Virus record (IMG/VR): IMGVR_UViG_2802429064_000003
DNA length: 64,000 bases
Strand: one strand, 5' to 3'
DNA from: a virus
Made by a program: the position numbers and the translations under genes. Below, piece after piece: positions 2,286 to 52,173 of this stretch (the stretch's first letter is position 1; the number at the start of each line of letters is the position of its first letter). A model generated the notes under the pieces. It was not told the DNA's origin and searched no databases. It saw only the letters and a program-made list of their open reading frames with translations.

Positions 2286-2688
2286 GTGCCGCGCCGAGCA
2301 AGGCTACGGTCGCCGATGCGCATAGACGGCGCACGTGTCACCTGCGACCAAACCGCAACGGCTGCAGAGGCTTCACCAGTTGTACGAGCTGACTTTGTCT
2401 GATCCTGAAACGGCGCACAGCCAGGCCGATGACCACCGCGTGCGTTACGTCAACGACCCCTACATCACAGCGGTCTTCGCGCGGTGTGAGGGGCATTACT
2501 GAGGCCGCGACACGCCGAGAAAACCGGCATTTGCCGTCTCAGTTGCTTGTCGGTCATGGGGTGTAAATAGTTAGGCAGTCGGCACGGATGCATGCATCTT
2601 CGACAGGTAGGGAAGCCCGTCGACGATGCATCCACACCGGCATAGATCAGCAACAGCAACTCAACAGCACCAGAAAAGAGGCACTACC

Positions 2689-3339
2689 ATGACCGCTCCT
2701 ATCGCTCCTGCCGCTGTTCCTGTGGCAGCCGCTCCAGCAGCCCCCGCTCCAGTGGCAGCCGCCCCGGTGGCCGCAGCTCCAGCACCGGCCGCTGTTCCTG
2801 GCGCTGCCCCCGTCGCTGCGGCGCCTGTGGCAGCTGCAGCCGTGCCGACCGCCGCTCCTGTCGGTCTGCCGGCGGGTTACGCGGGCGTCAGTTCTGTCGC
2901 ACCCAACATCGGCGTTATCCCGAATAGTGGCGGAGGCGGAATTCCGGAAGAGCACTTCAACAAGCCGATCCTTTTCCGGCTTCTGGGCATCGCTCAGCGC
3001 ACCAGCAAGTACGAGAAGGAGCAGGTCATGGCTCCGACCGTCGACTACATCGTGCTTGATCCGGCCACCGGTCAGTTCACGGAGGCCAAGAACATCACGA
3101 TCATGCAGAAGAACATCCGCAATGAACTGGTGACCTGCTTCCAGCGCGGCGAACAGGCGGTTACCGGTGTCGCGATCAAGGTCCCTACCAACAATGACAA
3201 CGACGCGAAGGTTCTGCGAGCGCTGGACGATCAGAACTCGGGATACGCCGCCGTTGGATACAGCGTCGAGCAGGTGATCGGCTTCCTTCGTGAAGCCGCC
3301 ATCAGCCAATTCCAGTGGTGGACGACGTCCGCCGCCTAA
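2689..3339 (+). CDS. Hypothetical protein with an N-terminal Pro/Ala-rich low-complexity linker
   Basis: ATG at 2689 preceded by an AAAGAGG RBS. PAAPVAAAP repeats are followed by a globular C-terminal domain. A terminator lies downstream. Confidence 0.55.
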   Translation: MTAPIAPAAVPVAAAPAAPAPVAAAPVAAAPAPAAVPGAAPVAAAPVAAAAVPTAAPVGLPAGYAGVSSVAPNIGVIPNSGGGGIPEEHFNKPILFRLLGIAQRTSKYEKEQVMAPTVDYIVLDPATGQFTEAKNITIMQKNIRNELVTCFQRGEQAVTGVAIKVPTNNDNDAKVLRALDDQNSGYAAVGYSVEQVIGFLREAAISQFQWWTTSAA

Positions 3340-4429: not shown

Positions 4430-4446
4430 TTCTCCATTTTAGAGAA
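4430..4446. promoter_or_regulatory. Operator/promoter palindrome, variant TTCTCCATTTTAGAGAA
   Basis: A 17-bp inverted repeat of the TTCTCTA-N3-TAGAGAA family, 19 nt upstream of the ATG at 4466. Confidence 0.55.
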
Positions 4447-11429: not shown

Positions 11430-12062
11430 TTACGTCAGCCGTCCAGCGCGGCGAAGAACATCGCCTGCTGCTTCGACGAGGTCCCATCCCGCGCGGTCTC
11501 CGTTGTTGCGGTCGGGATGCGAGTTGCCCCGTGCTGCGCGATAGGCCTTGTCGAGCGCTGAATCCTGATCACCAGCTGCCAGGCGGATGATCTGCTCTGC
11601 GTCATCAGCGGTCGCAACCACGCCGGACTGTCCCGCTGACGGAAGCTGTTTCCACCCGGTGTACTGCTCGCTTCCCGGGGTGATCCCGTATCGGTCGAGA
11701 CGACGCAATCCGTTGAGTCCGAGCGTGATGGCACGCAAATTGTCCTGCCACGTATTGAATTTCGCCGCGGGGTACGACAGCGGGCCGACGCGGGATTCGA
11801 CATGCAAGATCACGCCAGGGTGCTGCACCCGCGCATCGGCTCGTGGCAGGCCGTCAAGCCGGAAATCGCGCTCTCGGAGGGCGACCTCGAGTACGGACGG
11901 GGCGTTCGAGCCGTCCGATCCGAGGAACGATAACTCACGGTCGAGCTCTTCGAGTGTCGTCCGCAGTGGCGCCGAGAAAGGGGAGCGGATGTGCAGGCTT
12001 GGAAACGTTCCAGGCCAATTCTCTAAGGGGCGCAGTTTCATTCGATCGGGATAGTAGCTCAT
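11430..12062 (-). CDS. DnaJ (J-domain) containing protein
   Basis: C-terminal J domain with HPD (KAYRAARGNSHPDRNNGDRAGWDLV). ATG at 12062 in an ATGA overlap with the upstream gene. Confidence 0.6.
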   Translation of the reverse strand: MSYYPDRMKLRPLENWPGTFPSLHIRSPFSAPLRTTLEELDRELSFLGSDGSNAPSVLEVALRERDFRLDGLPRADARVQHPGVILHVESRVGPLSYPAAKFNTWQDNLRAITLGLNGLRRLDRYGITPGSEQYTGWKQLPSAGQSGVVATADDAEQIIRLAAGDQDSALDKAYRAARGNSHPDRNNGDRAGWDLVEAAGDVLRRAGRLT

Positions 12063-12901
12063 GCTATGGCAGCCTCTCGCATGTTGGTGGCGCATTCATT
12101 GGCGGCCTCGGCTCGGCGCTTGATCTCAGCTTCGATGAGTGGCATGAGGTCGCGTGCGACCGAGACGCTGAGTGTTAAGGAGCTCGAATACTGACGGGTC
12201 GAGTACAGAGCGGCAAGTATCTCCGCATCAAGTGTGGTGATGGCGCTGTTGTTTTCGCGGATCTGAGCAGCTACGAACAGCAGCAACTGTTGGTCGATCT
12301 TGAGTTTCACCGCCTTCCGCGGGTCCCGTTGTGCGGGTGTGTCGACCGTGCCAACGAAGGCACCTGGGGTGGGTCGAAAATCGGCGAGCGCCCACAATCC
12401 TTCGTCGTCAGGTGTAGCCGCGTACTCAGCGTTTTCGCCAGTACCGGTGCAACGCCTGCGAGTGTCCCCGTAGCGCAGCGCCTTGTCGGTGCCGCAGATA
12501 TGCTTCGCGGTATTCGAATAGCGAGTGATCATCACCATGTGAATGACGGTCTCGGTATCCAACGCCCACAACGCCCCATGATCCGGCGCTTCGCTCCAGT
12601 AGCTCAGTCCAAGTGCGGCGCAGGCAGCGATGTTCTCGCGGATGCGGGTAGGCACGGCTTTCACCGTGGGTGTGGTCCTGGGGCGAATCCAGAGACCGAA
12701 TCCCTTACGGGACTTTCCACGACCTTTGCGCCAGGTCAGATCTGAGCTCTGTGCGATGACCGCCGAGTATGGTTCTTGGGGGTCACGCTCGATCGACGGG
12801 TAGAACCGGGTCGGGCTTCCCGCGAATCTTGCGGAGACGCTGTCAGCGACAGCCTGAGCTGCCGGTGTCAACGGCCCGAGGCGAGGGGTGAATGCTGGCA
12901 T
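12059..12901 (-). CDS. Hypothetical protein (start moved to the ATG at 12901, downstream of the operator palindrome)
   Basis: The annotated longer ORF would read through the 17-bp palindrome. AAGGG RBS 6 nt before the ATG at 12901. Confidence 0.5.
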   Translation of the reverse strand: MPAFTPRLGPLTPAAQAVADSVSARFAGSPTRFYPSIERDPQEPYSAVIAQSSDLTWRKGRGKSRKGFGLWIRPRTTPTVKAVPTRIRENIAACAALGLSYWSEAPDHGALWALDTETVIHMVMITRYSNTAKHICGTDKALRYGDTRRRCTGTGENAEYAATPDDEGLWALADFRPTPGAFVGTVDTPAQRDPRKAVKLKIDQQLLLFVAAQIRENNSAITTLDAEILAALYSTRQYSSSLTLSVSVARDLMPLIEAEIKRRAEAANECATNMREAAIA

Positions 12902-12917
12902 AACGAGCCCTTTCATA

Positions 12918-12934
12918 TTCTCTAAAACAGAGAA
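12918..12934. promoter_or_regulatory. Operator/promoter palindrome TTCTCTAAAACAGAGAA
   Basis: A 17-bp inverted repeat 17 nt upstream of the leftward gene start at 12901. The flank forms a TATGAA -10-like hexamer on the coding strand. Confidence 0.6.
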
Positions 12935-12956: not shown

Positions 12957-13910
12957 CTATCGAGCGGCGGCATTGTCGGAAACTGCTGCCGAGTCCCTCG
13001 CGCGCTCTTCTGCGCGCTGCAGCAGGCGCCAGATTCGGCCGGCGTAGGCGTCCTTGGTGATCGGTGGATCGGCGTTGGCTGCAAGCTCGCTCATTCTGGC
13101 TTCCGGGTTCTCCAGGCGTAGTCGCGCCGCCTCTGCCAGCTGTGGTGGCACGTCATCGCCGAGGATTCGGAGCGCACGCCCCACTGATTCGGCTTGGTCG
13201 TGTGCCGCCTGGATGAACCTGGATCTGTTGGCAGCCTCGAGGTTCTCGACGCGCAGCGATTCGCGGTGCGTGCTCATGAGGGTGTGCGCAGCTTCGGGTG
13301 CTCCCACGGCTATGAGGAATCTACCTATCTCCGGGGTTTTGCGAATCTCGAATACATCGACAGATGCTCCGTCGCGGGTGTATTCGCGCATCTGAGTCTG
13401 TACTCCGTGGCGGCGGGCGAACCCACCGAGTGCCATCGCCGCTGGGGCAGTCGGGCACACAACCTCGAGGCGCGGTCGGCGCAGCTCGTGGGTGATGATC
13501 TGTCCGCGTGCCAAGAACGCACCGCGAAGTGCGGCTGCCGCGTCAGCGCGTGTGCCGGCGACCACCGTCGGCGCCATCCCTACCACCGGTCGACCCGACG
13601 GGCTGAGCAGGCCCACCTGCACCGCTAGGTTGTGGGCGCGATGTATCTGGCGCACCTTGAAGGTTCCCGCCGAGAGCTCGAACGCGCGCGGCGCCGCATC
13701 GAAGAGCTTGGTGATCTCGTTGCGCAAGAACACCGCGGCTTCGCGCGTATCGAGCTCGACGTCGATCCAGCAGCGGCGGCCCTCACTGAAAAACCCGCCG
13801 CCGAAGCGCAGCATCGCTGAGACCTGCGCACGTCTGGTCGAAGGCTTGTCGTGGACGGACGGAAGTACACGATTCAGTTCGTATTTGACCTGTTGCGTCA
13901 GTGGATTCAC
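12957..13910 (-). CDS. WhiA-like DNA-binding protein (degenerate LAGLIDADG scaffold plus C-terminal HTH), paralog 1
   Basis: N-terminus VKYELNRV...RAQVSAMLRFGGG and C-terminal DPPITKDAYAGRIWRLLQRAEE match WhiA signature regions. Confidence 0.6.
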   Translation of the reverse strand: MNPLTQQVKYELNRVLPSVHDKPSTRRAQVSAMLRFGGGFFSEGRRCWIDVELDTREAAVFLRNEITKLFDAAPRAFELSAGTFKVRQIHRAHNLAVQVGLLSPSGRPVVGMAPTVVAGTRADAAAALRGAFLARGQIITHELRRPRLEVVCPTAPAAMALGGFARRHGVQTQMREYTRDGASVDVFEIRKTPEIGRFLIAVGAPEAAHTLMSTHRESLRVENLEAANRSRFIQAAHDQAESVGRALRILGDDVPPQLAEAARLRLENPEARMSELAANADPPITKDAYAGRIWRLLQRAEERARDSAAVSDNAAAR

Positions 13911-13919
13911 CGGATACTC

Positions 13920-14216
13920 CTATCCCTGATCAGTGGTGTGGCTGGGAACGTCGACGAGAACCGGCAAGTATGGGAGGGACACGCCGGTGAGGTACCGCCG
14001 GAACTCCAAGACAGCAGCGCGGTCCTCCGGCGTCAACGAAGTGCCCGGCGCCGTCAATGTGCAGGACGCCGCATCGGCTGCGTAGCTCGGATCAGCCTGC
14101 GCGGGGTCGGACGTCCAGCCCCACTGATCGAAGTCAAATCCCTTGGGGCGCACTGGCCGGTACCAGGTGTTTCCGTTGGTGTCGGTGCGCGCTGGGTACT
14201 GCTGGGCGATGCTCAT
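13920..14216 (-). CDS. Hypothetical protein (start at the internal ATG MSIAQQ; the upstream reading frame is Arg-rich noise)
   Basis: ATGA overlap with the stop of 14213-14662. Confidence 0.4.
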   Translation of the reverse strand: MSIAQQYPARTDTNGNTWYRPVRPKGFDFDQWGWTSDPAQADPSYAADAASCTLTAPGTSLTPEDRAAVLEFRRYLTGVSLPYLPVLVDVPSHTTDQG

Positions 14217-14662
14217 GTCAGCTGACTCCGCCAACGCCACCCGTCGAACCACCCGCGGCAGTCGTTGCACTCCACCCCGCACCGCATATTGACCATCCAC
14301 AGATGCGTGCAGGTTGGGTCGGCGTCGCGCAGTTGTTGCTGATTCTCGCCAGGGCCGTAGCGCCTCGAAGCGAATACCGTACCGCCGTAGTTTCGAAGAC
14401 TTTCCTTCAGAGGAGGGAAGCCGGGCCCGAGTTTGGGCGGCAACGGAAGCCAGATCGGAGCCAAACCCATACTTTTGGCCCAATCGATGATGTTCTCTGT
14501 CGCCCAGCGTTCGCGCATCTGATGGAGATTCAAGCTGGCGTTCCACTCCGGGATATGTCCGGCGATCACGTCGAGTTCGAGTTGCCATTGGTAAGCCCGC
14601 AGGAACGCGGCCCTTGCGTAGGCCATGCGAGCTGAATCATGCGGTGCCATGGTGATGTTCAT
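14213..14662 (-). CDS. Hypothetical protein
   Basis: Protein-like composition. Coupled to its neighbours. Confidence 0.45.
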   Translation of the reverse strand: MNITMAPHDSARMAYARAAFLRAYQWQLELDVIAGHIPEWNASLNLHQMRERWATENIIDWAKSMGLAPIWLPLPPKLGPGFPPLKESLRNYGGTVFASRRYGPGENQQQLRDADPTCTHLWMVNMRCGVECNDCRGWFDGWRWRSQLT

Positions 14663-14973
14663 TGGAAGTCACCCCCGTCGCTGCCCATGCCGCCAACGCC
14701 CAGGCAAGGCTCGTCGCCGCTGGTGTGGGCTGCCATCACCCAGAACTTCCCGCCGTACCAGGCCTCCGCGCGACGTCGGCACCATGAGCAGGTGGCAAAG
14801 CCCTGCGGGTAGTGCGAAAGGTGCCAGTGCCCCGCGTCGTCGGGGAACTTGTATGGGTGGAGCGTCTGGAAAGTGCGGCCCGCGGATTCCACTGTCGCGC
14901 GGATATCCTGTGCGCCTGCCTGGGCGAGTTCGCTTGTCGGAAACAGGCGCTTCGTCGCGTATCGGCAGCTCAT
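14659..14973 (-). CDS. Hypothetical protein with the HWHL...CSWC...AWYGG motif (paralog of 8329-9288)
   Basis: FPDDAGHWHLSHYPQGFATCSWCRRRAEAWYGG. ATG at 14973 in an ATGA overlap. Confidence 0.45.
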   Translation of the reverse strand: MSCRYATKRLFPTSELAQAGAQDIRATVESAGRTFQTLHPYKFPDDAGHWHLSHYPQGFATCSWCRRRAEAWYGGKFWVMAAHTSGDEPCLGVGGMGSDGGDFQ

Positions 14974-15308
14974 CGAGTCTCGCCCTTCGCGCATTCGGGG
15001 TAGTGCTGATCGCGCGTGCACGCCTCGTATTCCCCCCGACTGACCTCGCGCCAGCCGATCTCTTTCCCGTTGTCCAATCTCAGGCGCCAAGATTCCGAGT
15101 GTGGGATCCACTGTGGCGGCGTGCCGGGATATGTGTTGCAGCGTGGCGGGCTCCCACTGCATGTCGTTGATCCCGGGGTGCCCGGCACGTACTGGGTCCA
15201 CGCGGGGCTGTACTCGGTGTCTACGACCTTTCCTTCAGCTGGTCCATTCCCGCAGGCGGTGAGCACGAGTGCCAGTGCGGCCGCAATGGGCCATCGTCGT
15301 GGACTCAT
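14970..15308 (-). CDS. Putative lipoprotein
   Basis: MSPRRWPIAAALALVLTAC|GNG signal peptide with lipobox. Cys-rich mature part. Confidence 0.5.
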   Translation of the reverse strand: MSPRRWPIAAALALVLTACGNGPAEGKVVDTEYSPAWTQYVPGTPGSTTCSGSPPRCNTYPGTPPQWIPHSESWRLRLDNGKEIGWREVSRGEYEACTRDQHYPECAKGETR

Positions 15309-15574
15309 CGATTCACCACCTCGGCGATAAGGTCGTCGATCCATGGCTCCCGAGGGTCGCGATCGCGATCCCATTCCCACTTGTCGAGCCAGCCGAAATG
15401 CGGTGTTCCGTTGAACAGTCGATTGCCGGAAATACTGACGATCACGACTTCTGCGTCCTGATCGCGCTGAACGTTCACCGTGTGCGGCCGAAACAAGGTC
15501 TCTGGCGCATGCCGCGGGCTCATATCAGGCAACTTGAAAGGTGGAATGTTGTGGGATTCCCAGTCACTCAACAT
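15305..15574 (-). CDS. Hypothetical protein (start at the internal ATG MLSDWE)
   Basis: The upstream part of the annotated ORF is low-complexity. Overlaps the stop of 15564-15806. Confidence 0.4.
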   Translation of the reverse strand: MLSDWESHNIPPFKLPDMSPRHAPETLFRPHTVNVQRDQDAEVVIVSISGNRLFNGTPHFGWLDKWEWDRDRDPREPWIDDLIAEVVNR

Positions 15575-15806
15575 GCTTAGTCTCCTGTGCTTTCTCGGTT
15601 GGGGGCTGGTCGAACGTCCACAGCTCGATCCGGCCGTGCTGCCAGAACAACTCACCGGCATTGCCCGCCCAGTTGAGGTCCATCTCCCAGGCGAGCTCAA
15701 TCCAGATGGGAGTGTCCAGGGCTTGGCGAATGTCGCTACACCGATGTTCTTGGCAGTCCACGTGATTGCGGCCATCAGGGCAGGTGCACACATCGGTGGT
15801 ATCCAT
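15564..15806 (-). CDS. Small Cys/His-rich putative metal-binding protein
   Basis: CTCPDGRNHVDCQEHRC. Confidence 0.4.
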   Translation of the reverse strand: MDTTDVCTCPDGRNHVDCQEHRCSDIRQALDTPIWIELAWEMDLNWAGNAGELFWQHGRIELWTFDQPPTEKAQETKHVE

Positions 15807-15809
15807 GGA

Positions 15810-16805
15810 TTACGCACCTGTCAGGAGTCGGACGGCCCCACCGTCGGGGCGCTCTGAATCGAACTCGTCCTGCTCTTCTCCGGCGGCGCGGCGGTCGGCC
15901 ATGATGAGCAACCGCCGCAACCGGCCTGCGACAGCGTCTTTGGTGATGGGCGGCTGGGCGAGCTGCCCAAGCTCTTCCAGAGATGCCTCGCGGTGATCCA
16001 GGCGAAGCTGTCCGGTGTGCGCCAGGTGCTCGGGTGCTTCTGCCCCCAAAATCGCTAGTGCCTGCTTCACCTTGGCCGCCGTGGCTGCCGCTGCTCGTGC
16101 TGATCTACGCGCGTTGGCGTCATCGAGGTTGACCAGCCGGATTGCGGTCGACTGCATTGCGCGCTGAGCGATTCGCCGCTCCCAGGAGATGCGCGACTCG
16201 TCTGCACCGATTCGGGTCAAGAGCGTTCCGATGCTGTCATGGTCGTGAATCACGACACGGTCGATGCCACGAGCGGTGCGCACCATCGACTGAACACCCA
16301 GCCGGCGCGCGCAGCTGGTCAGCGCGAATGCCACTTCGGGGTTGGGGCAGCTGATCTCCAGCGCGCTGGATCGGCTCGGTCCGATCAATGATCCAGCGAC
16401 CATGAAGGCGCCGCGCCAGGCTGCGGCGACCTCGCCCGGTGATCCGCCGACCACCATCGCGGGTAGCCCGGTGACGGGCCGGCCGCGCAGGTCGATGAGA
16501 CCAGTCTGTAGGGCGAGATCACGCCCACCTTCGCTCACGCGCACCGTGTAACGGGCACCACGGCGCAATCCGGTTTCGCTGTTCACGATCACTACTGCTT
16601 TGTGGCCATACAGTGCGGCGATTTCCCGGCGCAGGTACCGCGCGACGGCACCGGTGCCGACCTCGATGTGCACCGTCAGCCCGGTACGGGAGACACGAAG
16701 CTCACCAGCGAGTCGGACGATAGCTGCGACCTGAACACGCCTGCACCCCTGGTGTATTGATGTGGCGCGACTCAACTCGTCACGCACTTCCTGCGTCATC
16801 GACAT
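15810..16805 (-). CDS. WhiA-like DNA-binding protein, paralog 2
   Basis: MTQEVRDELSR...VAAIVRLAGE at the N-terminus. C-terminal LGQLAQPPITKDAVAGRLRRLLIMADRR closely matches the WhiA C-terminal HTH signature. Confidence 0.6.
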   Translation of the reverse strand: MSMTQEVRDELSRATSIHQGCRRVQVAAIVRLAGELRVSRTGLTVHIEVGTGAVARYLRREIAALYGHKAVVIVNSETGLRRGARYTVRVSEGGRDLALQTGLIDLRGRPVTGLPAMVVGGSPGEVAAAWRGAFMVAGSLIGPSRSSALEISCPNPEVAFALTSCARRLGVQSMVRTARGIDRVVIHDHDSIGTLLTRIGADESRISWERRIAQRAMQSTAIRLVNLDDANARRSARAAAATAAKVKQALAILGAEAPEHLAHTGQLRLDHREASLEELGQLAQPPITKDAVAGRLRRLLIMADRRAAGEEQDEFDSERPDGGAVRLLTGA

Positions 16806-16837: not shown

Positions 16838-18811
16838 TCAAGCTGCGGTTTCAACGGCGCCGGGGCGCTGGAAGGCCGGGAGCCACTTCTCGGCTTGGGC
16901 GAGTGCGATCAGGTCGCTGAGGTCACGGCGGTCGAGCTGGCCGGCGTCGGGGACTCCCAATTGCGACGCGAAGTCGATCTGCGCATCGGAGGACTTTGCG
17001 CGGGGGAGATCACGCATGTGATCGGGAAAGATATTCTGCGCCAGCGCGTCTGCCTCTGCCAGGCTCAGCCCTTGCAGGTAGCACCGGGGACCCGGTTCGG
17101 TCCACTGCCCATCGAGGCCGACCCAGAACATGCGGTGCACCGTGCTGTCGAAGAATCCGAAGGCCCAATCACGGCCCGCGACGGTCCCCGCGACACCACG
17201 CATATCGGCGAGCATCAGTACGCCTTTGTGGCCGTTGGCGCGGTACACCGAGCGCACGAGGCCCCGAGGGTGGTGTACCCAGCGGATGGTGGAGGTGCGC
17301 TGCGACCAGCTGGAGTCGCCTCGCCGCTGTTTTCCGGCGGCTAGGACGTCGCCGGTAACCGGATCGAAAGTCCGCAGCGGATCTACCCGGTGCAGGTCGC
17401 ATTCACAACCGCAACGGCACAGTCCGAAGGTCAGCGTGCATGTGCATGTGCAGGGGACACTGGACACGGGGTCGCTGGCTGGGCCTGACTCAGACGACTC
17501 GTTCGCACACGTGCAGTTGCATTCACAACCTATTCCGGTGCAGGAGAAGTCGCACTCGTCACTTGTGCAGGGCTGCTGGCAGAAGCAACCGAACCCGTCT
17601 TCGTCGCTCTCCGGTTTCTCGCGGTGTTCGGGGTCCAGGCGGGTCTTGACGATCAGCCCGAGGGATCCGGCGCCCACGAGGTCCACGACGAGAGCGGTGT
17701 CTTTGACGGTTCCGTCTTCGAAGGTGTGTGGCCGCAGTGCGCGCCCTACACATTGGACAAGCCTGGACTGGCTGCGCGTCGGTCTGGCCAGCACGACCGC
17801 TTCGCAGCGAGGGAAGTCTGCTCCCTCGGTGAGCACGTCGACCGTCACCAGCACCTGGGTGCTCCCGTGTCGGAATCGGTTGTAAATGCCGTTACGGACG
17901 CGGGTTTTGGTCTCTCCGACGACCACTTCGGCGGACACGCCTTGTTCGACAAGGGACTTGGCTAGTTGCTCGCAGTGCAACAACGAAGCGCCAAAGACGA
18001 TGGATGAGCGGCCCTCGGTGCGTGTCAACACCGCCTCGACAGTGGCGTTTAGCGTGGTCTCTCGCATCATCGCCTCTTCGGCGACCTCGTCGGAGATGTC
18101 TCCGCCACTACCGGAGGACAGCTTCGAGACATCAAGTTCCGGGAGTTCAACGGTCACGCCTTCTGGCGCGATCAAGAAGCCGTTTTCGATGGCCCAGTTG
18201 ATGTCCCGCTCGAAAACCACTTCTTCCCAGATGGTCCTCAAGGCGGGCTCGTCCCTGCTCGGGGCGTGGCGGATCATCGTCGCGGTGAATCCGGCGCGGC
18301 GCGCGCCCAGAGCAGTGAAGTGGTCGAGCACCTTGCGGTAGGTTCGGGCGGGCGCGTGGTGGGCCTCGTCGACGATGACGAGGTCGCGGTGTCCGATTCT
18401 GGTTAGGGCCGCCTCAGTCTGTAGTGATTGCACTGTGGCCGAGACAATCTGAGCAGTTGGGTCATCGCGATTGCCTCCTCCGATCAGCGAGGGGACGGGG
18501 CCGGCCGGGTTCACCGCTGAGACGGCAATGGCCATCTGCTTGATCAGTTCGTCGCGGTGGGCCATCAGCAGCACCCGGCCGCTGTTGGTCACCTCACGGC
18601 GCGCCAGCTCTGCGATGACGGTCGATTTTCCCGTCCCGGTCGGCAGCACGACCGCCGGTCCCACGACGCCACGGTTGTAGGCAGCGCATACCGCGTCGGC
18701 GGCTTCGATCTGATACTCGCGCAGTGGGCGTGGCTCGTTGGTTGCAGGGGCTGCGACAGGGAAAGCCATCTGCTCTTGATCTGCGGCGGGAGCCAAGTCG
18801 GTGACTGTCAT
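16838..18811 (-). CDS. Superfamily-2 DEAD/DEAH-type DNA helicase (ResIII-like) with a Cys-rich central segment
   Basis: Walker A VLPTGTGKST, motif II VIVDEAHHAP, a helicase C-terminal domain, then CFCQQPCTSDECDFSCTGIGCECNCTC. Confidence 0.75.
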   Translation of the reverse strand: MTVTDLAPAADQEQMAFPVAAPATNEPRPLREYQIEAADAVCAAYNRGVVGPAVVLPTGTGKSTVIAELARREVTNSGRVLLMAHRDELIKQMAIAVSAVNPAGPVPSLIGGGNRDDPTAQIVSATVQSLQTEAALTRIGHRDLVIVDEAHHAPARTYRKVLDHFTALGARRAGFTATMIRHAPSRDEPALRTIWEEVVFERDINWAIENGFLIAPEGVTVELPELDVSKLSSGSGGDISDEVAEEAMMRETTLNATVEAVLTRTEGRSSIVFGASLLHCEQLAKSLVEQGVSAEVVVGETKTRVRNGIYNRFRHGSTQVLVTVDVLTEGADFPRCEAVVLARPTRSQSRLVQCVGRALRPHTFEDGTVKDTALVVDLVGAGSLGLIVKTRLDPEHREKPESDEDGFGCFCQQPCTSDECDFSCTGIGCECNCTCANESSESGPASDPVSSVPCTCTCTLTFGLCRCGCECDLHRVDPLRTFDPVTGDVLAAGKQRRGDSSWSQRTSTIRWVHHPRGLVRSVYRANGHKGVLMLADMRGVAGTVAGRDWAFGFFDSTVHRMFWVGLDGQWTEPGPRCYLQGLSLAEADALAQNIFPDHMRDLPRAKSSDAQIDFASQLGVPDAGQLDRRDLSDLIALAQAEKWLPAFQRPGAVETAA

Positions 18812-19578
18812 GCAGCGCCTCGCTGTTCGGCGATCGCGGCGCCGAGCGTGAGAACGAAGTCACCGCCAGTGACGTACAGCCCGTCAGCTGCGGCCACCGT
18901 GATTGCGCGGCAAGGCTGATTGGGAACCTGCTCGAACGCAACGATCTCGCGGCGTAGTTCGTCGTCGCGCCCCCACAACGGCACGAGGCTGTATCCGGCT
19001 CCGTGCCGAACCCATGTAGGTAGTCCGCCTAGTGAACGGATCAGAGAGCCGGCGGCGGCCAGCGCCATGGAGGGAGCCGACGCTCCGATGCTGGACCGCG
19101 TGCCCAGTACACCGGCGAGCGTTTCGCGCCGCTGTGAGACGTCCGCGGTGAGGTACCGCCAAAGAAGGCCTGCGTCAGTAGCCTCGCCGCTGCGCAGTTC
19201 GGACCCGAAGGTTAGGGGGTCGACCGGGAGACCAGCGGCCTCCGGGAACGCAACGGCTGCCGCAGTCGGGATCGTCCAACGCGGTGCACCTCCCGGCAGC
19301 ACCAGATTGGCGCAGATATCAGCGGTGCGATAGATGCCGATCGCGCCGGTGGCGCCGTCACGAGCCTGCCACAGAGTTTCCGCGGCTACGTCGGTCTTGG
19401 CGCCGTCATCGAAATGCAGACGCGCCATCGAAACGGATCCGATGTCGTTGACGGCAAGAACCGGTATCGGGGTTCCATCGGACCCAAACACCGTGTCGCC
19501 GGGGACGAGATCGTCCAGCCGGCGGAATCCGTCAGGGGTCGGTATCGCCGTGTCGAGCGGCTGTGCGTGAGTGTTCAC
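18808..19578 (-). CDS. Hypothetical protein, weakly Hint/intein-like at its N-terminus
   Basis: AIPTPDGFRRLDDLVPGDTVFGSDGTPIPV resembles Hint block A, but block B is not seen. Low certainty. Confidence 0.4.
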   Translation of the reverse strand: MNTHAQPLDTAIPTPDGFRRLDDLVPGDTVFGSDGTPIPVLAVNDIGSVSMARLHFDDGAKTDVAAETLWQARDGATGAIGIYRTADICANLVLPGGAPRWTIPTAAAVAFPEAAGLPVDPLTFGSELRSGEATDAGLLWRYLTADVSQRRETLAGVLGTRSSIGASAPSMALAAAGSLIRSLGGLPTWVRHGAGYSLVPLWGRDDELRREIVAFEQVPNQPCRAITVAAADGLYVTGGDFVLTLGAAIAEQRGAA

Positions 19579-22099: not shown

Positions 22100-23067
22100 G
22101 AGGAGGTGAATCGAATTTGCGAATCATCCACGTTTCCATCACCGGCAATTGCCGTCGTCTCGGTGAGCGTAATGCCGGTTGTGATGCCTACGCAACACCT
22201 GTTCTATTTCTGCGTGTCGTTGTACGCCTGGGGTCTGACAAGTGGGCGCCATCCAGCTCTCAACCTGGGGAAATGTGTGGGGAAGTCGGTGGGGAGTGAA
22301 TGGGCGGCGCGTGGCTAGTTGCCGGTTGTTGCCTGTCACGTCCCCAGGGCATTGCGCGAAAGTAAGTTTCGGCAGATTGGTCGACGGGTTCCCGTCAAAC
22401 TCGCACCAGGCCTCCAACTATGTCTGGCTGCCCGGCATCGACTCACGGCCCGCCCGCCAGCCCCGGCTCTCCGCGGTTGGCGTGAATCTGTTCGTCGTGG
22501 TGTGTAACTTTCCCTGTTGACCTGCGGTTTCTGTCAACAGGGCGTGTACTTGTTGGCCTACCTGCGTGTTTGTGTTGATGCCTTGTAAGTGGGGGGTGCC
22601 TCGGAGACCCCCTCGGCGTGCACATATACACACGCGTTCTGACCGGCTTTGCCTCACGTAACGGGTAAAACAAATAATTAGCTAAACTAATTACATATAT
22701 CTACCTGGGGTTTCTTTATAGACCTACCGTGTGGGCAATTTTATGAAGCCAGAGCCGCGCCGAGGCACCCCCCACCTACAAGGCATCTCCGTAAAACCGC
22801 TGGTAGGCCGAGAAGTGCACGCCTTGTTGACCATTTACGCAGGTCAACGCGGCGAGAAACCGTGCACACCGAACGATTCGCACCACGAAAAAGTGTGCAC
22901 ATCGCAGAGGCGGAAATGTGCAGCAGTGGCGAGCGGCGGCCGGTGTCGGCGAGATCAGCAGTGGCGATATTTCGATGTAGAGATCAGGCGAATGGGCAAT
23001 ATGCCTATTTCGATGCCACCTATCGGCGTGTCGGCAACTAGATGGCAATGATGTCGGCATCGGATGC
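22100..23067. promoter_or_regulatory. Large divergent non-coding control region with several inverted repeats flanking a 100-bp AT-rich core: candidate early promoters, replication origin or site-specific recombination site
   Basis: No convincing ORFs. IR CCCTGTTGAC/GTCAACAGGG (22512-22542) contains TTGACC. A 24-bp IR (22581-22604 versus 22760-22783, one mismatch) brackets the AT-rich core at 22650-22740. Further IRs at TTGACC...GGTCAA and GTGCACAC...GTGTGCAC. Confidence 0.5.
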
Positions 23068-25863
23068 TTGACTGGCCGCGTGTCCGATGAGCCCAACGTG
23101 CCAGTGGTCGATCTGCCGCGTGTCAACGCGGTCGAGTTCCAGTTCTATGACCACACGGTCGGGGCGCATCTAGTTACCGCTGACAAACAGATGGCGAGGT
23201 GGATCGACGAGCTTCGGTCGGCGCCGCCAGCCGCGGTGGCCGTCGATATCGAGACCCATGGTCTTGACGTCAACAAGTTCACCATCACGTGTGTCACCGT
23301 GGCCTTCGAACTCGGTCAAGACATGGTGGCGCTGTTGTTCGATCCTCTGCGCCGTGCTGAACACCGCGGGATGCTGGCGCGGGTCTTCGACCACGCGGAC
23401 CGCCTGGTCTTCCACGGCGCCAGCTTCGACATCGCTCCGCTGTACGCCCACAGGCTCATGACGAAGGCGCATATTCGCAAGCTCGGCGACACGCTGGTCG
23501 CCGCGCGGATGGTGGGGACCAATGCCAAGGCCGGCCGCACACTCGAAGACCTCGCGAACGTGTTCCGCGTGATGGACGACGATCGCACGTCGATGACCGA
23601 AGTGTTCTCCGCTCGAGGACTTAAGAAGGACGACGGTTGGCGGGGAACTGATATCGACACTCCGACCTATGTAGTGGGTGCGTTGTCCGACACCGTCGCG
23701 ACAAAGCGCCTTTGGGGTGTCCCCGGCGTTAACGGACACGGCATCATGGCCAAGGCCGCTCGCTACCTGACGGCCCCGTCAGCGGGTTTCGGCGGCCATG
23801 GTGTTCTCACAGCCACTGACGCTGAAGCACTCGTCGAGGACATCCAGCGCGTCAACGCGATAGTGCTGGAGCGGACGGCACGCGGATACGCGGTCGACAA
23901 AGAGTTCCCCCAGCGTTTCCTTGAAGAGACTGCTGAGCAGACGCGGGCTGCCGCAACGACTCTCGCTGAGGCGGGAATCCGCCCGGGCAATGCCGCTGAC
24001 CTGGTCAACACCCTCGATGCCCGCGGTCTGCTGCACCAGCAATGGCCGCGTACCGACACAGGCCGCCTGAAAGCCGATAAGAAGGCCTTGGAGGTCTTCA
24101 CCGGTGAGCACATCAGTGACGCGCTGAAGAACCCGCTGGTGATGGCGCACCGTGCTGTTTTCGACAACGAGAAGGACCGCGGCTATGTCGAGAAGGTGGT
24201 CGAAAATGCAGGCCCCACAGGGCGCCTACATCCAGAAATCAAGATTTTGGGCGCCAGCGCCACCGGCCGCATGTGCCTGCCCGAGAATCAGCGGCTGCTG
24301 ACCCGCCGGGGCATCGTGTCTGTGAACGAGATCCGGACCGGCGATCGAACCCTGGATGCAGACGGGCGCTGGACGACGGTGCGGGCGGTGCACCGATACA
24401 GCGATGCGCCGCTTCGCCGTTACACACTCGATGATGGAATCGAACTGATTTGTACACCCGAGCACCGCTGGGTTACCGAGAACACGGCCGGTAAGCGCAA
24501 GGTTCAGCCTCTTGACCGTGCGCGGCAATCCGACCACCTACGGCTCACGCCGCCTATTACTCCCGGGGTCTGCGGAGGCGGGAACTCCATGACCGCTCCG
24601 CAGCACGCCGCGTACACCATCGGGCGTGTCACTGTTCAGCTTGCGCGACAACGCACCGGCGAGTTGTCCGATGCTCTGTGCGGTCCAGCCGAGACGCGGC
24701 GCGCGACGGTGACTAGCCTGCGTGAGCGCTGGCAGACCGAAGGTGAAACCTGCTGGGTACCCGAGCATGCGCCACGAGACACCGCGCTGCACTCGGTGTG
24801 CGACAAGTCTCTCGATGAGCTTTGGAACATGCTGGAGGGTGCGAGCCACTACGCCACAAACGTCAGTCACGCTGGTGTCACCGTGCTGCCCACACCCAAT
24901 AGACGCTACGCCGAGGCTTTCGCGCTGGCGGGATATCGTCTCGGTCTGCGATCCCTGATCTTTGACGCGCCTGCAGGGGCCGCCGTCGTGCTACATCGAG
25001 GGCGCTCCAGCCTGGCCAACATGGTTGTGAGTGATGCCGGAGAAGGCGATGTGTGGTGTGTGACAACTGATTCGGGCACATTCACCGCATGGGGCGAACA
25101 TGGCCCGTACCTGACGGGCAACAGTGCGAGCAAGCCGGAAATTCAACAGTTTCCCAAACTGGCACGTGGAGTCATCGTCGCTGATTCGGGTGCCGAGGGC
25201 TGGATTTCGGCGGACTGGAAATCGATCGAACCCGTGGTGCTGGCGACTGCGGCCGGAGACAGGCAGTTCATCTCCGACATGCGCGCCGGCATGGATCCGT
25301 ACGAGCCGGTGGGGCAAGCAGCCGGTATTGACCGCAAGCTTGCCAAGCGAAAGATGCTTGCGGACATGTACGGGCAGGGGCTCAAAGCCGCTTCGCTGCA
25401 ATATGGTTGGTCACTGGATCAAGCTCGGTTCGTTCAGAACACGATCCGCGGATCGCTGCCGATTCTGTACAAGCTGATCGACGCACTCAAGGCGCAGTCG
25501 CAACGATTCGGGCACGTGACCACGCTTACTGGCAGGGTGGTCGATCAGAAGTTCAGCTTCTACGAGGGCGGACGTCTGGTGAGCGATGTGGCACAACGCA
25601 TTGCGCCCAATCACTTCTGCCAAGGCTCGGCGCTGGACATCATGCACTACGCGATTCTCGAATTGGATCGCCGCGGGCTATCTGATCACGTCCACCTATG
25701 GATGCACGACGAGATCGTGGCGGACAAGGAGATCGCCGAGGAGTTGGCGGAAGTCATGGCCACGCCGCCCCCGTTCCTTGAAGCGGTGGCGCAGTACCAC
25801 GGTATCGAGGCGTTCTTGGCCGTTGACGTCAATGAGATGGGCAGCCGATGGGAGTACGTGTGA
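23068..25863 (+). CDS. polA: Family A DNA polymerase (Pol I-like, 3-prime to 5-prime exonuclease plus polymerase domains) interrupted by an intein
   Basis: Exo motifs VDIETHGL and [11 protein letters not shown]. Polymerase motif A region TGRM|C...N|[11 protein letters not shown] is split by a 283-aa insertion. Motif C region LWMHDEIV. Confidence 0.8.
24274..25122 (+). other. Intein (283 aa) inserted in polymerase motif A (TGR|intein|S..PxxQxxP)
   Basis: Starts with Cys in a block A-like [20 protein letters not shown]. Block B is ICTPEHRW. Ends ...[24 protein letters not shown] followed by +1 Ser. The penultimate residue is Gly rather than His, so splicing competence is uncertain. Confidence 0.65.
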
Positions 25864-26138
25864 GTAAAGAGAATTCGTACGCGCGGCTGCACGGGGCACT
25901 CGAACGCGGAGGACACCATGGGGCATCCGCGACCATGCCGACGCTGGCGGAGTTGGCCACCAACCACGTCGCGCATGGCGTCTTGGTCGGCACGAACTTC
26001 TTTGGGATCAACACCGCCCCCATTGCGCTCAACGAGTCCGACCACGTGCGTATGTGGGTACGGGCCGCGGCCAGGAACCGAGAGCGCACTGTCAGCGACA
26101 CGACGCATCACGAGCAGTGGATAGAGGAGACGTCATGA
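25857..26138 (+). CDS. Small hypothetical protein
   Basis: ORF overlapping the polymerase stop. Weak evidence. Confidence 0.3.
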
Positions 26139-27819: not shown

Positions 27820-29190
27820 CTAAGCCCCTCTGAAGGCATTGCTGAGCGCATCGATGCCGTTTTTGATGCCATCGATGTTGCCGGATTTGAACGTGATGCG
27901 TTTGAACATGCCCGAGCCGCTTGGGTATGAGGCGATAATTCCCCGGCCTCGCATGAAGGCCAAGGCCAGAGCGCCGGGCTCGCCTCGTGACACATCGACA
28001 TCACTTGTGCTGACCGTCACTGTCGCGAGCGCGTGGGTTGTGCACCCCGCGATTTCCGCAATTGCTGCCTGAGCTCCTGCGGGCGTCTTGGCTGCTTTCA
28101 GCACGTTGCGGGCTGCCTTGCGGGCACGCTCACGTACCGCATCGGCTTCGGCACGAATCTGGTCGTCAGCGTCCGGCTCGGGTTCGCTGTCGAAGAGTTT
28201 CGAGGCATCCGAGTCCGAGTGGAGTTGATCGACCACAGCCCCCGGCAGGACGATCGGGGTTTTGAGCGGGTAGGCCGGCCATTGGCCTTCAGGGTCCAAG
28301 AGGTCAAGAACAGCAGCAGCGGCGTCGGCGCTGGCTCCATCGCGGCGCAGTCGGCGGCTGAACACCACGGTGGTGTTGTTGATCAGCGCTGAGACCACTT
28401 CGCGCTTGCCCACGCCGATCACGAAAGTCACACGGGGAACATCACGTACCGCGGCCTGAACGCCGTACGGCTTCAATTCGGCAGGAACCTCTACAGGCGC
28501 CCGTCGCTGTGCGTAGAGAAGCACCGTGCAGTACACAGTCAGTTCGGCGTGACCTGTCACTGCGTCGAACATCTGCTTGGCCTCGTCGGTCAAGTGGCCG
28601 TGTTCGTCGAGGGCCTGCCACGCCGTGAGGTCGTGACTAATCTGCGCCTCTGAGGTGGATAGATGCGGAAAAGTCGGCCCCAACTCGATCGGGATCTGGC
28701 GCACCATCGACTTGGCAGCCAGCCAATGCCAGTGGGAGACCGTGAAGTACGGTGACGTCTCGGTCACCGGTGTGACGGTGTTGTCAGCAGTGAGCCAGCT
28801 GTTGATGCTGCGATAGGGCGCGTCAGCTGGGGCCTTGTCACGTCCCGGAACCAGCGCACGCATCGCAGCGCGCATGGCGTCGGAGACTTTGATGGTGCCG
28901 TCAGGGTTCATGCGAATATCGGCCCCGGCAGACTCGGCGATCGGCGCCATCTCTGGATAGGCGGTCAAGGCCGCCTGGATGCGCGCTTGAACCGTGTCTT
29001 TGGGCCTATCCGCCTCGGTGGGCCGAGCATGGCCGTCTTCGTTTGTGTCCTGGGCAGATTCACCACGACTGTCTCCGAACTCCGACAGCGGTGGATCTTG
29101 CTGTGCTAGCGCATCTGACGTGGGTGGCTGTTCGTCGGTTGTGGTGCTCAGTCCAGATTCGAGGATCGCCTGAAGTTGCTCATTGATCAC
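27820..29190 (-). CDS. Hypothetical protein (456 aa) with an acidic N-terminus; weak resemblance to secretion-associated chaperones, unverified
   Basis: Long ORF with good periodicity. No firm motif. Confidence 0.5.
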   Translation of the reverse strand: MINEQLQAILESGLSTTTDEQPPTSDALAQQDPPLSEFGDSRGESAQDTNEDGHARPTEADRPKDTVQARIQAALTAYPEMAPIAESAGADIRMNPDGTIKVSDAMRAAMRALVPGRDKAPADAPYRSINSWLTADNTVTPVTETSPYFTVSHWHWLAAKSMVRQIPIELGPTFPHLSTSEAQISHDLTAWQALDEHGHLTDEAKQMFDAVTGHAELTVYCTVLLYAQRRAPVEVPAELKPYGVQAAVRDVPRVTFVIGVGKREVVSALINNTTVVFSRRLRRDGASADAAAAVLDLLDPEGQWPAYPLKTPIVLPGAVVDQLHSDSDASKLFDSEPEPDADDQIRAEADAVRERARKAARNVLKAAKTPAGAQAAIAEIAGCTTHALATVTVSTSDVDVSRGEPGALALAFMRGRGIIASYPSGSGMFKRITFKSGNIDGIKNGIDALSNAFRGA

Positions 29191-33999: not shown

Positions 34000-34061
34000 C
34001 AGCTCGGCGTGTCGCCCCATCACAGTTGGTCCTGGCGCGAAACCGTTGGACAGTGACGCCG

Positions 34062-34078
34062 TTCTCTAAAACAGAAAA
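34062..34078. promoter_or_regulatory. Operator/promoter palindrome, variant TTCTCTAAAACAGAAAA
   Basis: Located 22 nt upstream of the ATG at 34100. Confidence 0.55.
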
Positions 34079-34099: not shown

Positions 34100-35104
34100 A
34101 TGACATCGACCTTGTGCCTGGAATCGAGGCCAACTGGGCTGGTTCCGAGCGAAGATGTGAGGGCAGAGCCCTCGTCAGATGCGCGCGAAGACGCGCGCTC
34201 GGCGAAGTTCAGCCGAGATGCCGTCCGGTACCTCCTGGAGTACATCGCTGCGAATGGTCACGCGCATATCCCGCGTGACTATGTGTGCGCAGATGGCTTC
34301 CAACTCGGTGCACGGTCCAACAACTGGCGGCGGCGAAAGATCAGTCCGGAGTTCATAGCGAGGCTTGACCGCGTGAAGCTCTGGCGGTGGACTGCCGAAG
34401 AAGCGCGATGGGACGCCCGCTTTGCGCTACTAACGGAATACATACAGGAACACGGTGACGCACGTCCGCCCGCCAGATGGCGCTCGGTTGATGGATTCCG
34501 TCTCGGCGGCTGGGTTGCCCGTCAGCGCGCCTTGTATCGTGAAGGTCATCTCGATCCGGATCGCACGGCTCGGTTAGAGGAGTGCCCCGGTTGGGTCTGG
34601 GAGCACCCGACGAACTTGCGATGGGCCGAGGCTTACAAACTGCTCTGCCGATACGTGGACGAGCATGGGACTGCAGCTGTTCCCTTGTCATACACCCACT
34701 CCGAGGGATACAGGCTCGGGGATTGGGCCGCCGCCCAGCGGTACTACTTCAAGACCGGAAGTATGAGCAAGGAACGAGCCCAGCTGCTCGAATCGCAGCC
34801 AGGGTGGTCTTGGACACGAGAATCAGCACGCTCAGATGAGCAGTGGGAGTGTGGATTCAATCATCTGCTCTGGCTTGTCGGACAGACAGGCTTCGCTGAT
34901 GTCCCCGCTGGGTATCGCACTCCAGATGGATTCCGGCTGGGACCATGGGCGTACTCGCAAAGGTCCCAGCAGCGCGACGGAACGCTAGATCCAGAAAGAG
35001 CTGCACGCCTCAACGCGATACCCGGATGGACCTGGCACATCGAGCCGAGCCGCAAAATTGCTCCACCGTATTCCACGCTGGTGTCCGCAGGAGCTTCGTC
35101 GTGA
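34100..35104 (+). CDS. Helicase-associated (HA) domain repeat protein (4-5 HA repeats, no helicase core)
   Basis: Repeated W..W...F..L..Y...HGH..VP......GF.LG.W...QR......L...R...L...PGW.W units. GGGAGTG RBS. Confidence 0.6.
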   Translation: MTSTLCLESRPTGLVPSEDVRAEPSSDAREDARSAKFSRDAVRYLLEYIAANGHAHIPRDYVCADGFQLGARSNNWRRRKISPEFIARLDRVKLWRWTAEEARWDARFALLTEYIQEHGDARPPARWRSVDGFRLGGWVARQRALYREGHLDPDRTARLEECPGWVWEHPTNLRWAEAYKLLCRYVDEHGTAAVPLSYTHSEGYRLGDWAAAQRYYFKTGSMSKERAQLLESQPGWSWTRESARSDEQWECGFNHLLWLVGQTGFADVPAGYRTPDGFRLGPWAYSQRSQQRDGTLDPERAARLNAIPGWTWHIEPSRKIAPPYSTLVSAGASS

Positions 35105-47846: not shown

Positions 47847-47863
47847 TTCTCTAAAATAGAGAA
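47847..47863. promoter_or_regulatory. Operator/promoter palindrome TTCTCTAAAATAGAGAA (perfect arms)
   Basis: Immediately followed by the -10-like TATAGT. 14 nt to the ATG at 47877. Confidence 0.65.
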
Positions 47864-51894: not shown

Positions 51895-52173
51895 GAGAGG
51901 AGACCTCCCTTTCCGTCGAGCGGTGCGTCCCCGGCCCGCGCCCGCCACGAAAAGGGGAGAGCTGCGTAGAACGCGACCTTCACGAGGTTCTTCGGCCCTT
52001 GCGGAGTCTCGTCAGCCGCCGCCGGGGAGCGGAGCTGGTCGAGAGTCCAGGCGCGGGAGCAGTTCTGGCCCCGTTGCGAAGGTACTTCCAAATTGCGATC
52101 GGACCTAATCGGATGAACTGACGACTCTCGGCGTGTCGCGAGCCGCTGGACGGCTTGTCACCCCAACCATCTA

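Follow-up and report, generated by a model that had tools for sequence, protein, structure and literature searches.

Why would a mobile element carry two copies of a regulator of its host's cell cycle, and are such copies what they appear to be? WhiA and WhiB2 are essential cell-cycle regulators of mycobacteria, and their mechanism has only recently been resolved. Genes for WhiB-like (Wbl) proteins are common in actinophages, and phage- and plasmid-borne copies of WhiB are well known. The stretch studied here, 64,000 nucleotides (nt) of the IMG/VR record IMGVR_UViG_2802429064_000003 (the whole of which is called the window), encodes two proteins that resemble WhiA, the other half of this regulatory pair, within one operon of an element whose close relatives are labelled Mycobacteroides abscessus. 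Both proteins (WhiA-1 and WhiA-2) are genuine, diverged and intact members of the WhiA family, and a set of putative promoters across the element carries an extended WhiA box at a fixed position. On balance, it appears probable that the pair controls the element's own promoters.

Two WhiA-family proteins and the homing endonuclease question

Gene positions (Table 1) come from a partly heuristic, strand-annotated gene map of the window, for which public gene calls on identical contigs were consulted. Both open reading frames (ORFs) encode the three Pfam domains of WhiA (WhiA_N, LAGLIDADG_WhiA, and the helix-turn-helix (HTH) domain HTH_WhiA) above the gathering score, with 27.5, 33.6, and 56.4 bits against cut-offs of 23.4, 23.2, and 27 for WhiA-1, and 68–70 bits for each domain of WhiA-2. 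The public gene calls start WhiA-2 at the ATG, upstream of which its ORF could extend to a TTG at 16841. Aligned end to end, the two proteins share 37% identity (E value 1e-43), and both keep the C-terminal HTH signature (PPITKDAYAGRIWRLL in WhiA-1 and PPITKDAVAGRLRRLL in WhiA-2), which bears out an earlier note on this DNA that had read them as two diverged WhiA paralogs with this signature retained. Among PDB sequences, Streptomyces venezuelae WhiA (8DY9) was matched by WhiA-2 over 306 residues without a gap (E value 1e-98) and by WhiA-1 over 304 residues (E value 2e-47), and 8DY7 was also matched. The AlphaFold model of WhiA-1 had a mean predicted local distance difference test score (pLDDT) of 91.9, and its top fold matches were 8DY9_I (E value 7e-23), 8DY7_I, and Thermotoga maritima WhiA (3HYI). 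A search of PHROGs gave no match for WhiA-1 or WhiA-2.

The N-terminal two-thirds of these proteins have the LAGLIDADG fold, with I-DmoI (a monomeric homing endonuclease) and intein endonucleases as detectable structural relatives, and the pair might on this ground be active homing endonucleases or nickases that aid the mobility of the element, a possibility that the earlier note had itself set against a WhiA identity. The second LAGLIDADG-like helix ends in VAGS in WhiA-2 and in ARGQ in WhiA-1, with no acidic residue in either, and the first ends in FGGG in WhiA-1, again with no acid. Members of the WhiA-2 clade do have a conserved Glu (LAGE, residue 35) one position past the first helix, at which the chromosomal proteins have Gly (FAGG); this Glu appears to adjoin the position of the LAGLIDADG catalytic acid and could be counted in favor of a nuclease, but we do not take it to indicate catalysis. 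WhiA structures matched the WhiA-1 model far better than did active enzymes of the I-DmoI type (E value ~1e-6, only ~12% identity), and the WhiA family has been described as lacking the LAGLIDADG catalytic residues (PMC10243135). What the two WhiAs have in common with I-DmoI is the fold of the N-terminal domain; they differ from it in lacking the catalytic acid pair, in having a long helix and an HTH domain that the endonucleases lack, and in lying inside neither an intron nor an intein. The homing endonuclease reading is effectively refuted, and we leave it next to no probability.

Evolution and maintenance of the whiA pair

An alignment with host WhiA, as the earlier note had proposed, was run on chromosomal stand-ins (orthologues from Mycolicibacterium, Rhodococcus, and Tsukamurella, the M. 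abscessus chromosomal WhiA not being among them); it confirmed the family and placed both copies apart from the chromosomal proteins. Chromosomal WhiAs of four Mycobacteriales genera are 84–88% identical to one another, and 61–75% identical across the phylum, while WhiA-2 is 56% and WhiA-1 39–41% identical to chromosomal Mycobacteriales WhiA. In a bootstrapped neighbor-joining tree, both fell outside the chromosomal Mycobacteriales clade (100% support), WhiA-2 and its relatives forming one clade with 100% bootstrap and WhiA-1 and its relatives another. The WhiA-1 clade was sister (94%) to the single WhiA of Tsukamurella “plasmid 13,” and WhiA-1 and WhiA-2 were not sisters; the deep nodes of this tree are without support, so neither a duplication nor two separate captures is claimed. 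That either gene is the orthologue of the essential chromosomal whiA was ruled out by the tree, by the identities of 56% and 39%, and by the location in an accessory element. WhiA-1 belongs to a fast-evolving lineage that is specific to mobile elements and probably older.

The arrangement of the genes was compared among two M. abscessus variants (L100 and L101), Mycobacterium sp. D16Q14 (L013), a metagenomic contig (L015), and Tsukamurella “plasmid 13” (L001). The order helicase, WhiA-2, zero to six small genes, WhiA-1 is common to L100, L101, D16Q14, and L015. The identities to the window copies are 73% (WhiA-2) and 49% (WhiA-1) in D16Q14, and 67% and 42% in L015, where the small genes are absent and the two whiA genes abut. 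The Tsukamurella element has a single-WhiA version of the arrangement, its WhiA being 36% identical to WhiA-1. Identical copies of WhiA-1 and WhiA-2 also co-occur in about 137 blocks of an assembly collection, always in the same operon and on contigs of which the longest exceed 1 Mb.

Such conservation bears on whether the whiA genes are decaying passengers without function, a reading that could draw on the fast evolution of WhiA-1 and on its truncation in one variant. Between element variants, the ratio of nonsynonymous to synonymous substitution rates (dN/dS) was ~0.05 for WhiA-2, ~0.08–0.09 for the helicase, and ~0.19 (range to 0.4) for WhiA-1, these values being approximate as dS is ~1 and near saturation. 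Both whiA genes are maintained by purifying selection, with WhiA-1 evolving several times faster. The dN/dS values well below 1, the ORFs that are intact both in the ~137 blocks and in elements with saturation at synonymous sites, the high pLDDT of the WhiA-1 model, and the order and neighbors kept across genera all speak against decay, which makes passengers without function a very improbable explanation. In L100 (12568–13870), WhiA-1 is cut to 291 residues before the HTH, and the downstream palindrome (described below) and DUF7457 gene are also missing, as if the three had been deleted together.

An extended WhiA box at a fixed position

In Mycobacterium tuberculosis, chromatin immunoprecipitation sequencing and IDAP-seq gave WhiA the consensus GACACGCC (PMC13473873). 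An 11-mer that embeds this consensus, CGACACGCCGA, occurs exactly six times in the window compared to 0.18 expected, and 13 times with at most one mismatch compared to 3.9 expected; none of 100 shuffles, against which we judged both box and palindrome counts, reached six exact copies. The six exact boxes lie in or next to intergenic DNA, and five of them have an identical orientation relative to the downstream gene. At the family A DNA polymerase gene (polA), the distance between box and start codon is 46, 46, 46, 46, and 47 nt in the window, L100, L101, D16Q14, and the Tsukamurella element, respectively, always in the same orientation, while the sequence of the spacer has diverged among the five elements apart from a hexamer (TTGACT, TTCACT, or TTGAAT) at −12 to −7. 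This fixed spacing across taxa, despite the divergence of the spacer, is an independent test of a box that was itself recognized post hoc. From the spacing and the −10-like hexamer (TTGACT or TTGAAT), promoters of the polA type are probably leaderless. The sepX promoter, for which a cryo-electron microscopy (cryo-EM) structure is available, is leaderless as well and has WhiA bound upstream of its −35 element (PMC10243135).

Word statistics in the window place the signal in the longer motif. Intergenic DNA makes up 10.7% of the window and holds five of the nine copies of GACACGCC (P ~1e-3). When 211 composition-matched permuted 8-mers were compared, those with the strongest intergenic bias were all sub-words of CGCGACACGCCGA. 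The 5-mer GACAC alone had no intergenic bias in the window (P = 0.12). The box signal is thus the extended 11-mer and its placement, and not the total count of GACACGCC. A copy of GACACGCC at 13978, ~70 nt upstream of WhiA-1, was considered as a site of autoregulation and rejected as a chance match because it is kept in no relative. Two further boxes with seven of eight matches (GACACGCG), oriented like the promoter box, fall in the opening 45 nt of the polA gene (23077–23124), so that the polA region has three boxes in total, ~40–54 nt apart.

Contact residues kept in WhiA-2 and lost in WhiA-1

Cryo-EM and mutagenesis of WhiA (residue numbers are those of the S. venezuelae protein) have identified K21, Q98, and Q115 as the dock for RNA polymerase (RNAP), R174, R177, R181, and R185 of the N-terminal domain as a DNA clasp, R221, L222, F225, and N229 in the long helix, and R266, L274, K287, R293, and R295 of the HTH as required for recognition of GACAC, with R295 contacting a base; WhiA acts there as a monomer with one HTH that recognizes this asymmetric motif (PMC10243135). 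In the alignment, WhiA-2 keeps K21, Q98, R174, R177, R181, R221, L222, N229, and all five HTH residues, the latter being present in every member of its clade. The WhiA-2 recognition helix (PPITKDAVAGRLRRLL) hardly varies among the elements, and the same is true of the box; it also differs very little from the chromosomal helix (PPMTKDAVAGRIRRLL). Departures are found at the dock residue Q115, which is replaced throughout the clade, at F225 (Leu in the clade), and at R185, which is His in the window copy only.

In the WhiA-1 clade, R174, N229, R266, K287, and R293 are retained, as is R185 in most members; the clade has lost R177 (Ala, Glu, or Gln), R181 (Val, Thr, Leu, or Ala), and L222; loss of the clasp residues R177 and R181 is also found in the Tsukamurella plasmid WhiA. 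The window copy has R177A, R181V, L222V, and R295W, together with a Val-to-Tyr change in the recognition helix. Position 295 varies among the orthologues (W, R, K, and R; Trp in M. abscessus, Arg in D16Q14, and Lys in L015), as does position 274 (Met, Leu, Ile, or Phe). The DNA specificity of WhiA-1 may have shifted.

A palindrome over six putative core promoters

The earlier note had taken the two WhiAs for candidate binders of a 17-bp palindrome and for possible repressors of the element. The palindrome itself exists: TTCTCT-N5-AGAGAA has six sites (at most two mismatches) compared to 1.16 expected, and six was reached in 0 of 100 shuffles. These sites are located 13–58 nt 5′ of starts with a Shine-Dalgarno sequence, belonging to five plus-strand genes and one minus-strand gene (DUF7457). 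The arm on the sense strand, TATTCT (or TATTTT), fits the mycobacterial −10 form TANNNT, and at two sites the palindrome fills the 16–17 nt spacer between −35-like and −10-like hexamers; the assignment of −35 and −10 is ambiguous, and the palindrome appears to overlap the core promoter either way. Across genera, the core TCTCTA-N3-TAGAGA is kept. Each of the relatives, D16Q14 and L015 among them, has a palindrome directly 3′ of its WhiA-1 gene; this also holds for Tsukamurella, where the copy after whiA (AGTCTCTATTTTAGAGACT) is followed by a Shine-Dalgarno sequence and GTG. The Tsukamurella plasmid has two adjacent palindromes at this place (L001, 10940–11000), CTCTCTAACCAGAGAC and AGTCTCTATTTTAGAGACT, and a third copy 2.4 kb downstream (13424). 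A perfect 17-nt palindrome, AACACCACGGTGGTGTT (28361–28377, inside the ORF 27820..29190), is single-copy and is not the motif meant in the earlier note.

GACAC or GTGTC is found 30–62 nt to the left of all six palindromes (~0.1 by chance per random position, P ~1e-6), an association spotted post hoc, of which the 11-mer count and the cross-taxon spacing are independent. The aligned boxes near palindromes read GCGACACGCC, and four of the six palindromes have a box match of at least seven of eight 30–60 nt upstream. The GACAC near the palindrome at 12918 was rejected as a site, since it lies inside the DUF7457 coding region and its position is not conserved.

Could one or both WhiAs, with WhiA-1 as the better candidate, bind this palindrome and repress the operons behind it? 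The palindrome follows WhiA-1 in every element, even in Tsukamurella where the WhiA is only 36% identical, and the WhiA-1 C-terminus, the palindrome, and DUF7457 are jointly missing in L100; moreover, no classical dimeric HTH repressor was recognized in the window, and the altered recognition helix of WhiA-1 (R295W and Val to Tyr) suggests a changed specificity. Against this, WhiA is a monomer with a single HTH and an asymmetric motif of 5–8 bp (PMC10243135, PMC13473873), while half-sites 11 bp apart suggest a dimer. Position 295 takes different residues in the WhiA-1 orthologues while the palindrome core is invariant, adjacency fits equally well with WhiA-1 as the last gene of its operon and the palindrome as the promoter of the next, and the many unannotated proteins of the window could include the real binder. 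The link of WhiA to the palindrome thus consists of adjacency and co-deletion, and actinobacterial WhiA, where characterized, activates transcription jointly with WhiB. We consider palindrome-binding WhiA repressors distinctly improbable, and the box appears the likelier WhiA target of the two motifs.

Proposed regulation of the element and possible interference with the host

Control of the element's own promoters by the WhiA pair is, in our view, the best explanation of the whole, and one to which we give somewhat more credence than doubt. The two WhiAs are the sole recognizable sequence-specific transcription factors among ~50 window proteins scanned with Pfam. As WhiA-2 keeps nearly every residue of GACAC recognition and of the clasp, it would be expected to bind the extended boxes in the element promoters, where, with a WhiB partner on the sigma-A holoenzyme, it would activate promoters of replication and maintenance genes that are probably leaderless. 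This partner would be host WhiB2, given that a six-frame regular-expression scan of the window for the Wbl cysteine motif found nothing credible. WhiA-1, with its degraded clasp (R177A and R181V) and changed helix (R295W), would most likely be a modulator that competes for or partners with WhiB and RNAP, or that acts by way of a changed DNA specificity, and the palindrome would act as an operator or promoter element of the six operons whose core promoters it overlaps. The idea of mobile-element regulators put forward in the earlier note is thus retained as far as the diverged pair and its plausible role in the element are concerned, while its repressor role and palindrome binding are not.

Several points weigh against this reading. 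The box was found after inspection of the data, the total of GACACGCC in the window is not enriched (9 compared to 5.9 expected), and host WhiA would be expected to recognize the same boxes, which makes them no proof that the element-encoded copies act there. Leaderless transcription was deduced from spacing and a hexamer, the Wbl scan was based on regular expressions and covered this window only, and the dN/dS values are limited by near-saturated synonymous sites. WhiA-2 has itself lost the dock residue Q115 and, in the window copy, the clasp residue R185, and WhiA-1 appears to be dispensable, at least in L100.

A more far-reaching form of this proposal is that the private WhiA pair redirects the host WhiB2-sigma-A holoenzyme to a private class of promoters, defined by the extended box with or without a palindromic operator, with WhiA-2 as the activator and WhiA-1 as either a neofunctionalized palindrome binder or an anti-activator that titrates WhiB2. 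We put this forward only tentatively, as a possibility well short of an even chance; if it is true, it would let the element couple its replication to, or override, the host cell-cycle regulon in a clinically important pathogen.

Alternatively, the boxes may be read by host WhiA and WhiB2, coupling replication of the element to the host cell cycle, with the element WhiAs mainly competing for WhiB2-RNAP or for host GACACGCC sites and thereby altering division; that the copies might reprogram division of the host had also been suggested in the earlier note. The nearly chromosomal recognition helix of WhiA-2 should see host sites too, and WhiA-1, with a weakened clasp on an intact fold, looks like a possible dominant-negative form. 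The genes that WhiA and WhiB2 regulate in M. tuberculosis are ones of division and replication (PMC13473873), and whiA was reported to be essential in M. abscessus (PMC10470612). There is also a documented precedent, as relayed in PMC6282962 from Rybniker et al. (2010): WhiB of mycobacteriophage TM4 lowers whiB2 expression and causes filamentation. Like the pair described here, WhiBTM4 is a mobile-element copy of one half of the host WhiA/WhiB pair and, as far as that account goes, it establishes that a copy of this kind is able to disturb the host regulon. It differs in being a Wbl Fe-S protein, the partner of WhiA, and in being encoded as a single gene by a lytic tailed phage. Conversely, the element persists integrated in many clinical isolates (~137 collection blocks), which makes strongly toxic, constitutive interference unlikely, and the dense, position-conserved boxes indicate a cis-regulon within the element. 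We regard action mainly on the host as rather unlikely, although it and a regulon within the element are not mutually exclusive.

The element and its gene content

The two whiA genes lie on the same strand, six small genes apart, in a tightly packed minus-strand operon from ~22096 to ~8055 (Table 1). The small genes, none of which had a Pfam match, have DNA similarity to genes 41–43 of the prophage prophi79-1. The helicase next to WhiA-2 has an unusual Cys-rich stretch (CFCQQPCTSDECDFSCTGIGCECNCTC...CTCTCTLTFGLCRCGCECDLH), and the ORF 18808..19578 upstream of it had a weak Hint_2 match (E value 0.008); since D16Q14 and Tsukamurella have a single ORF of 897–984 residues at this place, the M. 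abscessus helicase may be split or rearranged. Further upstream in the operon, an exact 22-nt tandem duplication (AGTGGAAACGGGCCTCAGGTGT twice, 21560–21603) was found between the genes for 166 and 384 residues. On the other side, polA is divergent from the whiA operon, and a PPE fragment (25848..26138) follows it.

Table 1 Features of the 64-kb window
Feature	Position	Strand	Context and evidence
DUF7457 gene	12059..12901	−	First gene behind the WhiA-1-linked palindrome; ATG at 12901
WhiA-1	12957..13910	−	317 residues; three-domain Pfam matches, PDB 8DY9 match, AlphaFold model
Six small genes	13920..15806	−	Between the whiA genes; 98, 149, 104, 112 (lipoprotein-like), 89, and 80 residues; public gene calls
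WhiA-2	15810..16805	−	331 residues from ATG; Pfam 68–70 bits per domain, ungapped 8DY9 match
DEAD/ResIII helicase	16838..18811	−	Directly upstream of WhiA-2; Pfam; synteny in L013, L015, L100, L101, and L001
polA, with 3′-5′ exonuclease	23080..25863	+	Family A DNA polymerase; divergent from whiA operon
Tyrosine integrase	60949..62157	−	Near right end of element
WhiA box	2508..2518	+	Gap after NUDIX gene, ~180 nt upstream of + gene 2689..3339; position kept in D16Q14
WhiA box (CGACACGCCGA)	23023..23033	−	46 nt upstream of polA start (23080)
WhiA box	34004..34014	−	47 nt upstream of palindrome 34062
WhiA box	52128..52138	−	35 nt upstream of palindrome 52174
WhiA box	55507..55517	+	46 nt upstream of RNase H start (55460, minus strand)
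WhiA box	55945..55955	+	47 nt upstream of start of gene 55601..55897 (−)
Palindrome, 1 mismatch	4430..4446		Upstream of + gene 4457; 7/8 WhiA box at 4385–4392 (−)
Palindrome TTCTCTAAAACAGAGAA, extended ATATTCTCT-N5-AGAGAATAT	12918..12934		In 55-nt gap from WhiA-1 stop to DUF7457 ATG (12901)
Palindrome	34062..34078		Upstream of + gene 34100..35104 (HA-domain protein)
Palindrome	41646..41662		Upstream of + gene 41720..42655 (SPFH/Band7); 7/8 box at 41596–41603 (+)
Palindrome	47847..47863		Upstream of + gene 47877..48590
Palindrome	52174..52190		Upstream of + gene 52207..52389

HA, helicase-associated

The Pfam scan, which covered the ~50 window proteins and 10 kb to the left of the window (L010), found three helicases (two with helicase-associated (HA) repeats), an RNase H, two DEDD exonucleases, two FtsK/SpoIIIE-type ATPases, and an SLT transglycosylase in the window. 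Eight tandem 192-nt repeats (36758–38169) correspond to HA domains (PF03457) in the helicase 34945..38205; just upstream, and behind the palindrome at 34062, a 334-residue protein (34100..35104) consists of HA repeats alone. The SPFH/Band7 gene is the first behind the palindrome at 41646, ahead of an HA-domain helicase. At the left end (window 1–2285 and L010 1–10000), a cluster of genes related to NAD and ADP-ribose (NAMPT, NUDIX, Macro, phosphoribosyltransferase, RyR domain, and GmrSD_C) adjoins genes for a 1425-residue EccC-like ATPase and an LppX lipoprotein, and may be a defense or counter-defense module. Of these, NAMPT and NUDIX are encoded inside the window, and Macro, GmrSD_C, and the EccC-like ATPase to the left of it.

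What kind of element is this? The earlier note had called the operon phage-like, a description that only the mosaic of small genes, partly common to prophi79-1, fits. No terminase, portal, capsid, tail, or other virion, packaging, or lysis gene was found among the ~50 window proteins and in the 10 kb to the left, the element running past the left end of the window, and a tailed prophage is thus not demonstrable within this range. PHROGs matches of the window were limited to the integrase, DNA metabolism, and NAD salvage; a 745-residue protein matched Tsukamurella “plasmid 13” only and no phage; and when 25 kb of the window was compared with plasmids by megablast, nothing closely related turned up. 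A tblastn search of 50,697 phage records found WhiA in no isolated actinobacteriophage, its matches being only unannotated gut “Bacteriophage sp.” contigs and the host flanks of Firmicute prophage records. A pattern scan of one genome per species, whose matches were mostly chromosomal WhiAs of Micromonosporaceae and did not include the M. abscessus chromosomal WhiA, did not find the element in the M. abscessus representative and gave only a 73% relative, in Mycobacterium sp. D16Q14; the element is thus accessory. An integrase, an FtsK/SpoIIIE-type translocase, replication genes of its own, and accessory spread are the hallmarks of an integrative conjugative or plasmid-like element, and all of these are present here; the whole resembles a plasmid-like or conjugative island that is integrated in M. 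abscessus.

Relation to known WhiA genes and significance

Compared to chromosomal WhiA (S. venezuelae, PDB 8DY7 and 8DY9; M. tuberculosis Rv1423), the element copies have the same three-domain architecture and fold, WhiA-2 has nearly all of the DNA-contact residues that have been tested, and the GACAC/GACACGCC motif recurs in the element boxes, which precede the −35 region of probably leaderless promoters, as at sepX. They differ in being two, in lying in an accessory element rather than at the conserved chromosomal locus, and in lacking R177, R181, L222, and R295 (WhiA-1) or Q115 (WhiA-2). Their apparent targets would be replication genes of the element rather than division genes of the host.

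Other diverged whiA genes are found on large mycobacterial plasmids, namely M. avium pP3-3a and p1-JPH1, plasmids of M. intracellulare subsp. chimaera AH16 and 852, and pMYCSM02 of Mycobacterium sp. JS623. Like the Tsukamurella tyrosinosolvens “plasmid 13” gene, these are extra-chromosomal, diverged, and automatically annotated, but they are single copies in other neighborhoods, whereas the M. abscessus family has a conserved pair. Tsukamurella is the exception in neighborhood: polA, helicase, and whiA are syntenic there, whiA is followed by the palindrome, and the box precedes polA by 47 nt. A full-text literature search found no paper on plasmid-, phage-, or genomic-island-encoded copies of WhiA. 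That the window proteins bear the WhiA name by automatic annotation was already known; what is new is a paralog pair kept on a family of mobile elements, the defined residue losses of WhiA-1, and an element-wide promoter class with the WhiA consensus at a fixed position.

With one conservative and one residue-losing paralog, six exact boxes, and the palindrome as a second cis-element, M. abscessus offers a compact system that could show how the replication genes of a mobile element are wired into, or away from, the WhiA/WhiB circuit of the host. The natural variants (R295W and loss of the clasp arginines) would be useful for dissecting the specificity of WhiA. As the element is accessory in clinical M. 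abscessus, any effect on division or drug tolerance would be of practical interest.

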